Shown in pieces: positions 30,701 through 39,700 of a DNA stretch of 64,000 nucleotides (position 1 is the first letter of the stretch; each line of letters starts with the position of its first letter). A program made the position numbers. Source of the stretch: Escherichia coli (GTDB lineage: Bacteria; Pseudomonadota; Gammaproteobacteria; Enterobacterales; Enterobacteriaceae); the NCBI RefSeq assembly GCF_051903065.1, contig NZ_CP178439.1; one strand, given 5' to 3'.

Positions 30701-33700
30701 TTTCGCACACTAACGAAGGTATGGCCTTTCGTCGGTGTTAAATTTTTCAAACTTTGCTTACTTTGTCAAGGAAGGTGACCGCAGTAGCAGGCACAACTAC
30801 TTTAATCTGTATGAATAATAAGGTAGAACCGGCCAGTGAATGAATGCTTACCCTGAAATCAGGCGGACAACCTTCAGGAATATTGATAGCAAGACTGAAT
30901 CTCTCGCTGCGGCGATAAACATTTCGCCATAACCCTGAACGAGAGTGGTTCATCCATCATATACAGGAGCGTTACATGCGCAAATTTAAGTACATAATCT
31001 GTCACCAGTGCGAAGGCCACGGGACCATGGAAAACCCGGCCTTTGAAAATGGATTCACCCAATCAGAAATGGCTGAGTGGGAGCCAGAAATGCGTGAAAA
31101 GTATTTTGCCGGAGCATTTGATGTTCGCTGTAACGTTTGTGCCGGTGACGGTAAGCTCAGCGTACCAAACGTAGCGGCTATGTCTTTTTCAGAACGACGG
31201 GTTCTGGCAGCACGGCGGCGTGATGAGCGTCTTCAGGCTGCTGATGAACGGCTGTCCCGCCAGGAACGAGCAATGGGGTACTGAGGTGCTACAGCAAAGA
31301 TGAAAATGACGAAGCCAAAACCGGTAAGCCGGATGAAAAGACCGTTTATTAGTGAGCTTGCAGAGCTGGGTTTATCGGGTGAAATTCTTTCAATTCGAAC
31401 TGACGGCATGCAGGGGACGCTCATACCCGATCTTACCGCAGGGGTGAGTGAAGCAGGCCGTGTGAAAACCGGCAACTGGGTAATCTCTGACAAGAGAACC
31501 TTCGACCATGTCGTTCTGTGTGTTGAAAGACAAGATGAGAACCATGATGTGTACGTAGGTAAATTCATCCAGTTACATGTAGCCGCTAATAAGAGCCTTA
31601 AGATCGTCGAAATGGGCGATGTGAAACTGGTGGCCATAACCAGCTCGATTCCTACCACTTTTAATGGTGGGATAAAGAGATACAAAGGGGTTACGTATGT
31701 GTCACTTTCCCAAACAGCTCAAACCACTATCGACTTCCCGAAGCGTATCTACAAAGAGGGCCAGGAATGTACTTCTGTCACCAGTCCTGACCAAGGTCCT
31801 TTCGCCCGGGATGTTAGGTTGAATTGCTACGGGCGATGTGTTGTCACCGGCGTAAGGTCCCCCTGGCGTACTGAGGCCGCGCACTTAACGCCACGTCATG
31901 AAGAAGGCATTCCCGACGTAACGAACGGAATTTTACTTCGCCGTGATATCCATACACTGTTCGACAATGACCATTGCGCCATAAACCCTGACACTATGAA
32001 AATTTACTTCAGCCGGGAGGCCCGGGAGTTGGATGATGATCTCCTGAAATGGCATGGGAATGAGATAGAGACGACACGCATGCAGGTTCCGGTTAACATC
32101 GAAAACCTTCGGATACGATGGCAAAAATTTAAGGCTAAGGATCGTCAGCGTAAATAAAGCCATAAGCTGAACCACGGCGAGGATTAGTCTTGTTCACTAA
32201 ATGACAGCGAGAGATTAAATGCAAACCCAAAAAGAAATTACAGTTGGCCAGATCTGGGAAGAAGTGGATCCAAGACTGATCCGGAAAGTGCGGGTTGTTG
32301 AGGTGGCCTCGTTAGAAGGGCCCAAAGGCATCCTTATCGAAAACGTGGAGTCTGGTCGTAAGAACTGGGCGTCGTCATCCCGCTTTAATGGAAAGCGTGG
32401 AGGGTATCGTCTTATTTCCTGACGGTTTTGCCAATATGGGAAACTGAAGAGGTTGAAACCATCCCGGTGAGGGAGCATATCTGGTAAAGAAGAGTCTTTA
32501 AAAAGGTTTTACGCGACCTGGGATAATAAACGGGAAAACGATACCCAAAAAAAGAATACAGCGATGATAACGATAAGGAATGGTAAGGGCTTCAATATTT
32601 TGAGAAATGCCCTGGCTTCCTTTGCATCTGCATTTCTAATCAAACTGTCCACATAGGGATCACAGCTCTTAGGTTCTGAATTTTTCATATGTTCTGTACC
32701 TGAAATTGATTCCGTATGAGAAAAGGCCACCGAAGTGGCCTCTATCAAAACTGGTGGCAAAAGTTAGATCAGGAAATCATCAAGACTTTTACCGGCTGCA
32801 ATTTGTTCTGCCAGAGCTTTGGGGGTACGGCCCTGTCCAGTCCACGTTTTTGTTTCGCCATTTTCATCAGTAAATGAGTATTTGGCCGGGCGTGGTCCAC
32901 GGCTTTTCTTGGTAGCCGTAGATTTGGCCTGGAATGAGCCAAGCAGCTCTTCCGGGTTGATACCATCTTCTTCCATTAACTTACGCAGGGCGTCAAGTTT
33001 CTCCTGACGAGCTTGCAGTTCGGCAGCTTTGGATGATTCTTCCTGACGGCACTGTTGCAAATAGTCGGTGGTGATAAACTTATCATCCCCTTTTGCTGAT
33101 GGAGCTGCACATGAACCCATTCAAAGGCCGGCATTTTCAGCGTGACATCATTCTGTGGGCCGTACGCTGGTACTGCAAATACGGCATCAGTTACCGTGAG
33201 CTGCAGGAGATGCTGGCTGAACGCGGAGTGAATGTCGATCACTCCACGATTTACCGCTGGGTTCAGCGTTATGCGCCTGAAATGGAAAAACGGCTGCGCT
33301 GGTACTGGCGTAACCCTTCCGATCTTTGCCCGTGGCACATGGATGAAACCTACGTGAAGGTCAATGGCCGCTGGGCGTATCTGTACCGGGCCGTCGACAG
33401 CCGGGGCCGCACTGTCGATTTTTATCTCTCCTCCCGTCGTAACAGCAAAGCTGCATACCGGTTTCTGGGTAAAATCCTCAACAACGTGAAGAAGTGGCAG
33501 ATCCCGCGATTCATCAACACGGATAAAGCGCCCGCCTATGGTCGCGCGCTTGCTCTGCTCAAACGCGAAGGCCGGTGCCCGTCTGACGTTGAACACCGAC
33601 AGATTAAGTACCGGAACAACGTGATTGAATGCGATCATGGCAAACTGAAACGGATAATCGGCGCCACGCTGGGATTTAAATCCATGAAGACGGCTTACGC

Positions 33701-36700: not shown

Positions 36701-39700
36701 GACCGTCGTCGATTAGTACCGGTACGGTCGGTGGTATCGAAGTCTTGATCACCACTCAGGTCTACGGCTTACAAATGGTGACCATCCCGATACTTGCGTC
36801 AGAGCACCGGGCCGATTCTTTGACAGTGAATCACTCCCGTAAGGTTGTGCCGGTGTGGGTGTCCCGGGTCGAGACGATACTCCGCCAATGCGCCCAGCAA
36901 ACAACCTGGCCATCGCAGGTGGTGGGGAGCGGTGTGGCGGATGAGTTGGACAAGTTGGTGTAGCAGCACGAGCACGGCGAGATAACATCGCAGGAGTTCG
37001 ACATGCTCAAGAGACAGCTGATTGCGAATCGCGATGCAGATTCATAACCCGATTGCGGGTTGGCTTCACTCCACCATCACCGAGCAGACTAGCACGGCGG
37101 GCTCTGTTGCAAAGATTGGCGGCAGTCAGAGGTAGGCTGTCGCTCTGCGCCGATCAGGCGGCTGCTGCGAAATGGTGGTTGAGCATGCCCATGGCCTCCG
37201 TCAGCGCCGAGGGCCCAATGCCAAAAGCTCTCTCCACAAGGCGCACCTCGCCCCTGATGCCGGGCTGCAGGCACCAGGGGCGAGCCTGTCCTTTGCGCAG
37301 GGCTCGCATGACTTCGAATCCCTTGATCGTGGCATAGGCCGTGGGGATCGATTTGAAACCGCGCACCGGCTTGATCAGTATCTTGAGCTTTCCGTGATCG
37401 GCCTCGATCACGTTATTGAGGGCACTGTTGCAAATAGTCGGTGGTGATAAACTTATCATCCCCTTTTGCTGATGGAGCTGCACATGAACCCATTCAAAGG
37501 CCGGCATTTTCAGCGTGACATCATTCTGTGGGCCGTACGCTGGTACTGCAAATACGGCATCAGTTACCGTGAGCTGCAGGAGATGCTGGCTGAACGCGGA
37601 GTGAATGTCGATCACTCCACGATTTACCGCTGGGTTCAGCGTTATGCGCCTGAAATGGAAAAACGGCTGCGCTGGTACTGGCGTAACCCTTCCGATCTTT
37701 GCCCGTGGCACATGGATGAAACCTACGTGAAGGTCAATGGCCGCTGGGCGTATCTGTACCGGGCCGTCGACAGCCGGGGCCGCACTGTCGATTTTTATCT
37801 CTCCTCCCGTCGTAACAGCAAAGCTGCATACCGGTTTCTGGGTAAAATCCTCAACAACGTGAAGAAGTGGCAGATCCCGCGATTCATCAACACGGATAAA
37901 GCGCCCGCCTATGGTCGCGCGCTTGCTCTGCTCAAACGCGAAGGCCGGTGCCCGTCTGACGTTGAACACCGACAGATTAAGTACCGGAACAACGTGATTG
38001 AATGCGATCATGGCAAACTGAAACGGATAATCGGCGCCACGCTGGGATTTAAATCCATGAAGACGGCTTACGCCACCATCAAAGGTATTGAGGTGATGCG
38101 TGCACTACGCAAAGGCCAGGCCTCAGCATTTTATTATGGTGATCCCCTGGGCGAAATGCGCCTGGTAAGCAGAGTTTTTGAAATGTAAGGCCTTTGAATA
38201 AGGAGAGCATGAAAAACCTCGGGGCAGCCATCGAATGATGCCATCTACAGGGGTTAAAATAACCACCATCATTTCATAACAATACCTGCTGACTATGAAG
38301 ATCTACGTCATCAAAATAGCAGTTCATGGAGTCAGTCCGATGGTCTGGCGTCGGCTGAGAATTGCTGCCGACACGTCACTGGCCGCGCTTCACTTCATTT
38401 TCCAGATAGTGCAGGGCTGGGGGGACGACCATCTCCATCAATTTCACATTTATGGCAAAGATTACGGTATCTCCTACGAAGGAGGCATCGGTTTTGTCGA
38501 TAATCCGTTCCGGGTCGTGATTGATGATTTTGCTTTTGATGCTGGCGATCGCTTTACCTATGAATACAATTTCTGGCACTGTTGCAAAGTTAGCGATGAG
38601 GCAGCCTTTTGTCTTATTCAAAGGCCTTACATTTCAAAAACTCTGCTTACCAGGCGCATTTCGCCCAGGGGATCACCATAATAAAATGCTGAGGCCTGGC
38701 CTTTGCGTAGTGCACGCATCACCTCAATACCTTTGATGGTGGCGTAAGCCGTCTTCATGGATTTAAATCCCAGCGTGGCGCCGATTATCCGTTTCAGTTT
38801 GCCATGATCGCATTCAATCACGTTGTTCCGGTACTTAATCTGTCGGTGTTCAACGTCAGACGGGCACCGGCCTTCGCGTTTGAGCAGAGCAAGCGCGCGA
38901 CCATAGGCGGGCGCTTTATCCGTGTTGATGAATCGCGGGATCTGCCACTTCTTCACGTTGTTGAGGATTTTACCCAGAAACCGGTATGCAGCTTTGCTGT
39001 TACGACGGGAGGAGAGATAAAAATCGACAGTGCGGCCCCGGCTGTCGACGGCCCGGTACAGATACGCCCAGCGGCCATTGACCTTCACGTAGGTTTCATC
39101 CATGTGCCACGGGCAAAGATCGGAAGGGTTACGCCAGTACCAGCGCAGCCGTTTTTCCATTTCAGGCGCATAACGCTGAACCCAGCGGTAAATCGTGGAG
39201 TGATCGACATTCACTCCGCGTTCAGCCAGCATCTCCTGCAGCTCACGGTAACTGATGCCGTATTTGCAGTACCAGCGTACGGCCCACAGAATGATGTCAC
39301 GCTGAAAATGCCGGCCTTTGAATGGGTTCATGTGCAGCTCCATCAGCAAAAGGGGATGATAAGTTTATCACCACCGACTATTTGCAACAGTGCCCGTCGG
39401 CTTGAGATGCACATGTTGGCTGAGGTCGCCGGGTAGCGTGAACAGGCGCGGACCGTCCCGAAACTGGAACACGCGATACAGATGGAATTGATCGCCCGCC
39501 TCCTTGGAGAATTCGAGTTCGTTGTGGCTGACCAAGAAAGACGAGCCTACCCCGCCATTGGTGGTTTTCACCTCGATGAAGCGCTCATGGGCGTCCTCTT
39601 CGAACGACAGGATGTCGAACCCCGCACCGTCTCCCTGGGTGTCGGACACCCAATCCAGCCGCTGAAAAAGCTCTGGGTGGCCGAGCTCGGTCAGGCGTTG

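Follow-up and report, generated by a model that had tools for sequence, protein, structure and literature searches.

Resistance modules bracketed by the insertion sequence (IS) IS26 are described, in the model of Harmer and Hall, as pseudo-compound transposons or translocatable units. Tn3-family transposons duplicate 5 bp of their target, and the terminal inverted repeat (IR) of Tn2 starts with GGGG. IS4321 and IS5075 (IS1111 family) target the 38-bp IRs of Tn21-subgroup transposons at a fixed register, inserting inside the IR in one orientation and without target duplication, by means of a transposase unrelated to that of ISKpn19. Here, we analyzed a 64,000-nucleotide (nt) stretch of Escherichia coli contig NZ_CP178439.1 (the window), in which the macrolide resistance module mph(A)-mrx-mphR(A) lies between two IS26 copies, the second of which lacks its right end and abuts ISKpn19 at positions 38202/38203. 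We propose that this joint is probably the relic of two nested transpositions, of a Tn2-type transposon into IS26 and then of ISKpn19 at the Tn2 end, rather than damage made by IS26. Relatives of the region have been described before, namely, Tn6292, a Tn3-family qnrS1 transposon with ISKpn19 in its tnpA (PMC5027574, PMC5868456), and plasmid pSal016 (NZ_CP069382.1; Salmonella Saintpaul, IncHI2), where the block was named an 'IS26-mediated composite transposon' and the truncation of its left IS26 went unmentioned (PMC9396133).

Together with related IncHI2 plasmids such as pEC71-IncHI2, pSal016 is closest to the window, being 100% identical over 33048-38574 (5,527 bp) and 99.99% identical over 43970-55294, which holds the rest of ISKpn19, qnrS1, and Tn2::ISEcp1-blaCTX-M-55. 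However, ISKpn19 is uninterrupted in pSal016, which lacks the IS26-aac(3)-II-IS26 unit of the window, and the left neighbor of IS26 copy 1 is cmlA6 there and an H-NS-like gene here. Judging from this near-complete identity outside the IS26-aac(3)-II-IS26 unit, the window is a pSal016-type region plus that acquired unit. Tn6292 carries the same ISKpn19 element and is the source of the tnpR-qnrS1-truncated ISEcl2 segment, but its ISKpn19 sits within tnpA and points the other way, as it does in pYD626E, whereas in the window the right IR (IRR) of ISKpn19 abuts tnpR at nt 186, and the 5′ part of tnpR and the tnpA of Tn6292 are missing. Like an IS26 pseudo-compound transposon, the macrolide module has two direct IS26 copies around it; unlike one, its second IS26 has no right IR and there is no flanking duplication.

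IS26 copies were located by blastn with copy 1 as the query against the whole window, which gave five matches, four complete and one partial:

33048-33867, + strand: IS26 c1, complete (820/820), with both 14-bp IRs
37421-38202, + strand: IS26 c2, IS26 nt 1-782 only, 100% identity
38575-39394, - strand: IS26 c3, complete
43150-43969, - strand: IS26 c4, complete, 2 mismatches
61249-62068, + strand: IS26 c5, complete

Copy c2 is a truncated IS26 and not a complete 820-bp member. It retains the left copy of the 14-bp terminal IR (GGCACTGTTGCAAA) at 37421-37434 and lacks exactly the final 38 bp of IS26, right IR included, so that the earlier note on this DNA, which had reported directly oriented copies around the macrolide module and a second copy ending 38 bp early, was correct to the base. 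The tnp26 gene of c2 is intact (234 amino acids), with a translation identical to that of c1 and its stop codon kept at 38186-38188. The last base of c2, G at 38202, corresponds to base 782 of native IS26 and can be assigned to either side of the joint.

On the other side of the joint stands ISKpn19 (ISKra4 family), itself interrupted by an IS26-bounded unit:

38203-38574, + strand: ISKpn19 left part, left IR (IRL) and 5′ part of a pRiA4b-ORF3-like gene
38575-43969, - strand: IS26-bounded unit within ISKpn19, with c3, an open reading frame (ORF) of 434 amino acids, a tmrB-like gene, the AAC(3)-II gene, and c4
42025-42909: AAC(3)-II gene, within the IS26-bounded unit
43978-46456, + strand: ISKpn19 right part, rest of the pRiA4b-ORF3 gene to IRR
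44425-44997, + strand: ISKpn19 serine recombinase gene
45031-46425, + strand: ISKra4-family transposase gene (NCBIfam transpos_ISKra4, 380.7 bits against a cut-off of 205)

ISKpn19 begins at 38203, directly abutting c2, with IRL GAGAGCATGAAAAACCTCGGGGCAGC, the ISKra4-family left IR already recognized in the earlier note, and ends at 46456 with IRR (reverse complement GAGAGCATAAAAAATATTGGGGCAGC); the two IRs are imperfect. Other records support both termini, as IRL has many different left neighbors among plasmid records and in hundreds of such records the shared sequence breaks off at 46456. Without the IS26 unit, and with its duplication counted once, the element measures 2,851 bp (372 + 2,479) and has three genes. 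Its flanks in the window, TTGAATAAG and GGTCGTATG, are unequal and form no target-site duplication, while simple ISKpn19 insertions elsewhere show duplications of 7-9 bp. ISKpn19 is therefore not a simple insertion in its present context, and one of its sides has been exchanged.

IS26-rich regions are hard to assemble, and the truncation could in principle be an assembly or sequencing artefact, for which the earlier note had suggested a check, or a product of the activity of IS26. We searched for the joint with a 50-bp query (38178-38227; plasmid match threshold, at least 80% coverage) and found the identical junction in 139 PLSDB plasmid records from at least 10 genera (Escherichia, Salmonella, Enterobacter, Klebsiella, and others) and in 66 of 5,426 complete E. 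coli genomes, a sharing far beyond chance. The pSal016 identity also spans the junction without a mismatch, and we know of no IS26 reaction of the IS6 family that removes 38 bp of its own end, these reactions acting at intact termini. An artefact is thus excluded, and a self-inflicted loss deserves hardly any credence. The joint and the whole arrangement are already known, being widespread in public records and present in one published plasmid. In other plasmids, the left end of c2 has at least five different neighbors (the IS6100 remnant, IncN backbone, pK91 backbone, a Tn1721-region fragment, and a further truncation), and c2 hence still joins in rearrangements.

The missing 38-bp end, which the earlier note had suggested seeking elsewhere on the plasmid, was found in the whole window (at most 3 mismatches) only inside the four complete IS26 copies, with no orphan. 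Other plasmids proved more informative. A 49-bp junction-only query, used for the count because a 104-bp query gave mostly two-piece matches, identified 13 plasmids in which the right IR of Tn2 is directly followed by IS26 nt 777-820 (...GACCCC/AATAAGACAAAAGG...CAGTGCC), and orphan IS26 right ends were found only in this form, starting at nt 777 and abutting the Tn2 right IR. Six of these records were examined, all with IncN or IncN backbone beside the remnant. They include pVQS1 (NC_019124.1) and pMUB-MIN14-3 (NZ_CP069649.1), both IncN plasmids with qnrS1 and blaTEM-1, and pT3 (NZ_MK656937.1), a multireplicon IncFIA/FIB/X1 plasmid with an IncN backbone fragment. All three carry the truncated tnpR-qnrS1-truncated ISEcl2-Tn2 block of the window, but where they have IS26 nt 777-820 after the Tn2 right IR, the window has TGTTAAAAGC. 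Their left sides differ: pMUB-MIN14-3 shares the IS26(1-782)/ISKpn19 joint with the window, pVQS1 has no ISKpn19 and a complete IS26 that cuts tnpR further in, and pT3 has a Tn1721-region fragment left of ISKpn19.

pMUB-MIN14-3 holds both halves of IS26, in the same orientation and 10,619 bp apart, in the order IS26 nt 1-782/ISKpn19-truncated tnpR-qnrS1-truncated ISEcl2-Tn2/IS26 nt 777-820. Both halves contain AATAA (nt 777-781) and the G after it. Since AATAA has the 5-bp length of the duplication expected of a Tn3-family transposon, the simplest reading is that Tn2 entered IS26 at AATAA and that nt 1-781 originally stood against the Tn2 left IR. We also considered a 10.6-kb mobile unit with ISKpn19 IRL and Tn2 IRR as its ends and a 6-bp duplication; it was rejected, as these ends are unrelated in sequence, and is also ruled out by pT3, which has the identical right end with a different left flank.

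How ISKpn19 could come to lie next to IS26 where a Tn2 end is expected was addressed with a chimeric 60-bp query made of ISKpn19 IRR, TTGAATAAG, and GGGTCTGACGC..., which aligned along its whole length, at 83-95%, with about 100 records. Five IRR-proximal records were read; their mismatches were confined to 9 variable bases, and each presented a different 9-mer (CAGATTAAG, CTGATCAAG, GCTGCATAG, TGCGATTAG, and CACTATACG) followed by GGGTCTGACGC. Three of them have the identical 9-mer on the IRL side as well (CAGATTAAG in L021, CTGATCAAG in L022, and GCTGCATAG in L023), the IRR-side copy continuing into GGGTCTG each time, while L024 and L025 read IRR, 8 bp, and GGGGTCTG. In p1203F (L008), ISKpn19 lies between two copies of AATAAATAG, the second followed by GGGTTCTAGGG, which is probably the terminus of another Tn3-family element, and by a truncated DUF4158 transposase gene. 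L026 carries ISKpn19 in the opposite orientation at the same register (CCCC+TGTTACCG/IRL). Seven distinct 8-mers were read in total, all arranged as IS end, 8 bp, and GGGG-IR:

IR-end loci L021-L026 and L008: NZ_CP061949, CP122811, NZ_CP100546, NZ_CP075883, NZ_CP082291, NZ_CP095783, NZ_MW363914
Flanking 8-mers: CAGATTAA, CTGATCAA, GCTGCATA, TGCGATTA, CACTATAC, AATAAATA, CGGTAACA

Independent insertions with different 8-mers thus occupy the same position relative to a Tn3-family IR, and in either orientation the 9-bp duplication consists of the 8 flanking bp and the first G of the IR. L021 (NZ_CP061949.1) is an independent second case, with an intermediate-type architecture at another IS26 position: IS26 nt 1-561, cut at 560/561, abuts IRL, and CAGATTAAG and an intact Tn2 follow IRR. 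It seems quite possible, if still doubtful, that ISKpn19 is a target-specific element recognizing the outer terminus of Tn3-family 38-bp IRs in either orientation and duplicating 8 bp plus G. Such an element would resemble IS4321 and IS5075 in having the terminal IR of a Tn3-family transposon as a preferred target at a fixed register, but would differ from them in using the outer edge of the IR (8 bp outside and 1 inside), in either orientation and with a 9-bp duplication, and its transposase is a Mutator-like (ISKra4-family) DDE enzyme unlike theirs. This behavior would explain why ISKpn19 is often joined to Tn2/Tn3 ends and to what those transposons interrupted, here IS26, and would help explain the assembly of qnrS1-blaTEM-blaCTX-M regions. 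If confirmed, it adds a target-specific IS and makes puzzling junctions readable as ordered histories. The point is only mildly new. IR-end targeting by ISKpn19 was not stated in the papers searched and may be recorded in ISfinder, TnCentral, or subscription journals, so that its unpublished status cannot be shown.

These elements can be assembled into an ordered history of the joint. A Tn2-type blaTEM transposon would have entered IS26 and duplicated AATAA (nt 777-781), leaving IS26 nt 1-781 against its left IR and nt 777-820 against its right IR; the predicted left junction is IS26 nt 757-781 followed by GGGGTCTGACGC.... ISKpn19 would then have landed at the left IR of Tn2, its 9-bp duplication TTGAATAA+G being made up of 8 bp from IS26 and the first G of GGGGTCTG. 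Applied to IS26 nt 781, the 8 bp + G rule predicts TTGAATAA+G followed by IRL, which is the exact sequence at 38194-38203; the predicted IRL-side copy of the duplication is the sequence now at 38194-38202, and G 38202 would be the first G of the lost Tn2 IR. In a third step, the DNA on the IRR side would have been replaced by the Tn6292-derived truncated tnpR-qnrS1-truncated ISEcl2 segment, followed by Tn2, either by homologous or res-site recombination through the shared ISKpn19 and Tn2 or from an ISKpn19 cointegrate resolved through Tn2 copies (res sites). Flank exchange through ISKpn19 as the common sequence was proposed for related plasmids (PMC5868456), and the serine recombinase of ISKpn19 was suggested to resolve cointegrates (PMC3942029). 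As comparison of the plasmids shows, the resulting IS26(1-782)/ISKpn19-qnrS1-Tn2 block has finally been carried to many plasmids and has acquired new left neighbors at c2. In the window, this neighbor is IS26-mph(A)-mrx-mphR(A)-IS6100 remnant, and the IS26-aac(3)-II-IS26 unit has in addition entered ISKpn19.

Several observations weigh against this history. Two of its predicted junctions were not found in PLSDB: the IS26(..781)/Tn2 IRL joint, for which the best match, on a Raoultella plasmid, has a 3-bp gap and represents another junction, and ISKpn19 IRR/TTGAATAAG/GGGTCTG, for which the best match reached 95%. Of the six records examined that bear the remnant, pMUB-MIN14-3 alone has both IS26 halves, and it could be a secondary recombinant; pVQS1 and pT3 have kept the 44-bp IS26 remnant with other sequences on the left. 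A Tn2 origin of G 38202 cannot be shown from its sequence, which is equally that of native IS26. As for the targeting itself, no experiments on ISKpn19 target choice were found, and ISKpn19 also inserts at non-IR sites (L009 and L010).

In one alternative, ISKpn19 itself interrupted a complete IS26 at TTGAATAAG (nt 774-782), and the IRR-side IS26 remnant was later lost in flank exchange; the entry of Tn2 at nt 777-781 in IncN plasmids would have no connection with it beyond the same AT-rich spot. Two independent elements would thereby have come to lie within one base of each other in IS26, about 1 in 800 per random site. Several other IRL flanks of ISKpn19 are A-rich and end in AAG or TAG (CTCAATAAG in L017; GAGATAG in pT3), suggesting some sequence preference that IS26 nt 774-782 would satisfy. 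The non-IR insertion at L009, with its duplication in the 7-9-bp range, and the native G at 38202 also fit a direct insertion. Yet ISKpn19 IRR followed by IS26 nt 774 onward was not found in any record of PLSDB, the only orphan IS26 right ends found lie against Tn2 and have nt 777 as their first base, and a Tn2 break combined with the 8 bp + G rule predicts precisely this joint. We regard a direct insertion as unlikely.

An ISKpn19-mediated adjacent deletion is, in our estimate, slightly less likely again. Here, the element would have stood beside the truncated tnpR and qnrS1, and its IRL would have attacked a leftward site in the same molecule, with loss of the intervening DNA. The IRR flank (truncated tnpR) indeed recurs in 1,145 records, in contrast to the variable flanks at IRL, and intramolecular events leave flanks without duplication. 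A case on the other side of the element is offered by pEC_18FS090 (L011, NZ_ON960335.1), which keeps the IS26(1-782)/ISKpn19 joint and has IRR joined to window position 46926; this 469-bp deletion, beginning exactly at ISKpn19 IRR, is consistent with adjacent deletion by ISKpn19. Such an event at IRL must nevertheless still end one base inside a Tn2 IR abutting IS26 nt 781, which makes it an intramolecular variant of the nested transpositions rather than a true alternative, and a simple leftward deletion would not give the IS26 right remnant that lies downstream in pMUB-MIN14-3 in the correct order and orientation. The two nested transpositions, Tn2 into IS26 and ISKpn19 at the Tn2 end, thus remain our preferred account. 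The earlier note had proposed either a deletion or the insertion of the neighboring element into IS26; insertion comes close, but Tn2 is the most likely cause of the break in IS26, because the orphan ends abut Tn2 and ISKpn19 repeatedly inserts at Tn2/Tn3 IR ends, and a plain deletion is unneeded.

The macrolide module itself is composed as follows:

33937-34842, + strand: mph(A), macrolide 2′-phosphotransferase (NCBIfam Mph(A), 685 bits against a cut-off of 550)
34839-36077, + strand: mrx(A), MFS protein (Pfam MFS_1; annotated mrx(A) in the identical pSal016 segment)
36077-36661, + strand: mphR(A), TetR-family repressor (Pfam TetR_N; annotated mphR(A) in pSal016)
37100-37420, - strand: IS6100 remnant, 321 bp (100% identical to IS6100 of pYD626E; Pfam DDE_Tnp_IS240)

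The order of a phosphotransferase gene scoring above the Mph(A) cut-off, an MFS gene, and a TetR-family gene is that of the mph(A)-mrx-mphR(A) operon, and the mph(A) DNA is 100% identical to the pSal016 gene annotated mph(A). The IS6100 remnant, also reported in the earlier note, consists of one IR and the C-terminal 88 codons of the transposase, with the IR-like GGCTCTGTTGCAAA at 37100, and is cut by the left end of c2. The unit as a whole (33048-38202) has direct IS26 copies of which only c1 is complete, where a pseudo-compound transposon has two complete copies, and no 8-bp target duplication surrounds it, the left flank being TTCCTGAC (33040-33047) and the right side meeting ISKpn19 directly.

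Without its right IR, c2 would be unable to transpose as an IS. It should still be usable as 782 bp of homology with c1 and as one IS26 end, so that the macrolide module is presumably not immobilized; RecA-dependent recombination across the 782-bp c1/c2 identity would excise a circle with mph(A) and a complete hybrid IS26. The remark in the earlier note denying a truncated IS26 the role of a complete end is only partly relevant, given the left IR, the intact tnp26, and the several contexts in which c2 is found. The finding itself is routine resistance-plasmid mosaicism. Its practical bearing is that movement claims built on the published 'IS26 composite transposon' label need care, the left IS26 having no inner end, and that the 50-bp truncated IS26/ISKpn19 junction is a stable, specific marker of one qnrS1-Tn2(-blaCTX-M-55) lineage, which it could serve to trace.

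The IS26-AAC(3)-II unit splits the pRiA4b-ORF3-like gene of ISKpn19 after 372 bp and is surrounded by a perfect 8-bp duplication, CAATTTCT (38567-38574 and 43970-43977), the classical duplication of IS26 units. Its 434-amino-acid ORF had no NCBIfam hit. The c4 copy that bounds it differs from the other IS26 copies at nt 613-614 (GG>AA), giving Tnp26 G184N, a variant reportedly more active.

Two further ISKpn19 contexts were noted on IncX3 plasmids. In L018, the flanks are CCAGATCG on the IRL side (Tn6292 tnpA) and CAAGATCG on the IRR side (truncated repA), one base different, a near-match that could reflect chance or a duplication that has decayed; of these two flanks, L026 has only the one at IRR. 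A scan of genome contigs with IRL returned one short Kluyvera contig, and a scan of metagenome contigs with IRR returned no match.

To the right of ISKpn19, the window continues with the segment shared with Tn6292 and with the Tn2-type transposon:

46457-46886, + strand: Tn3-family resolvase gene, 3′ part (Tn6292 tnpR from nt 186), abutting IRR without target duplication
47205-47861, - strand: qnrS1, annotated in collinear plasmids
49281-57206, + strand: Tn2/Tn3-type blaTEM transposon, 38-bp IRs at 49281-49318 and 57169-57206

The possibility that ISKpn19 is a simple insertion in the tnpR of Tn6292 was rejected, as a chimera of 5′ tnpR and IRL had no contiguous match among 72,556 plasmids, the single two-piece match having 106 extra bp. 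The terminal IRs of the Tn2-type transposon (GGGGTCTGACGCTCAGTGGAACGAAAACTCACGTTAAG) are present at both ends in inverted orientation, but its 5-bp flanks, TTTTA and TGTTA, are unequal, and it is therefore not a simple insertion in the window either; the AATAA duplication proposed for Tn2 is visible only between IS26 halves on other plasmids. The transposon is broken at 52111-55081 by a 2,971-bp ISEcp1-blaCTX-M unit, for which a 5-bp duplication is inferred from the 5-bp overlap of alignment blocks.

The interval from the truncated tnpR to qnrS1 contains an exact solo 14-bp IS26-type terminal repeat, TTTGCAACAGTGCC (46944-46957), whose conservation extends to pVQS1, pMUB-MIN14-3, and others. 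This repeat was rejected as the missing IS26 end, since the 24 bp upstream are unrelated to IS26. The ISEcl2-remnant region occurs twice as a 943-bp inverted duplication, 100% identical (48330-49272 and 60306-61248), with 8 bp between the end of one copy and the left IR of Tn2 and with the other copy abutting the left end of IS26 c5, an arrangement that suggests an IS26-mediated inversion or duplication. Finally, the DNA downstream of Tn2, beyond its right IR (57450-60120), has two adjacent genes, one for an FtsI/PBP3-like transpeptidase and one for a LAP-family beta-lactamase. The transpeptidase (582 amino acids), an unusual plasmid passenger, scores 617 bits and so falls short of the NCBIfam FtsI cut-off, which is 737.

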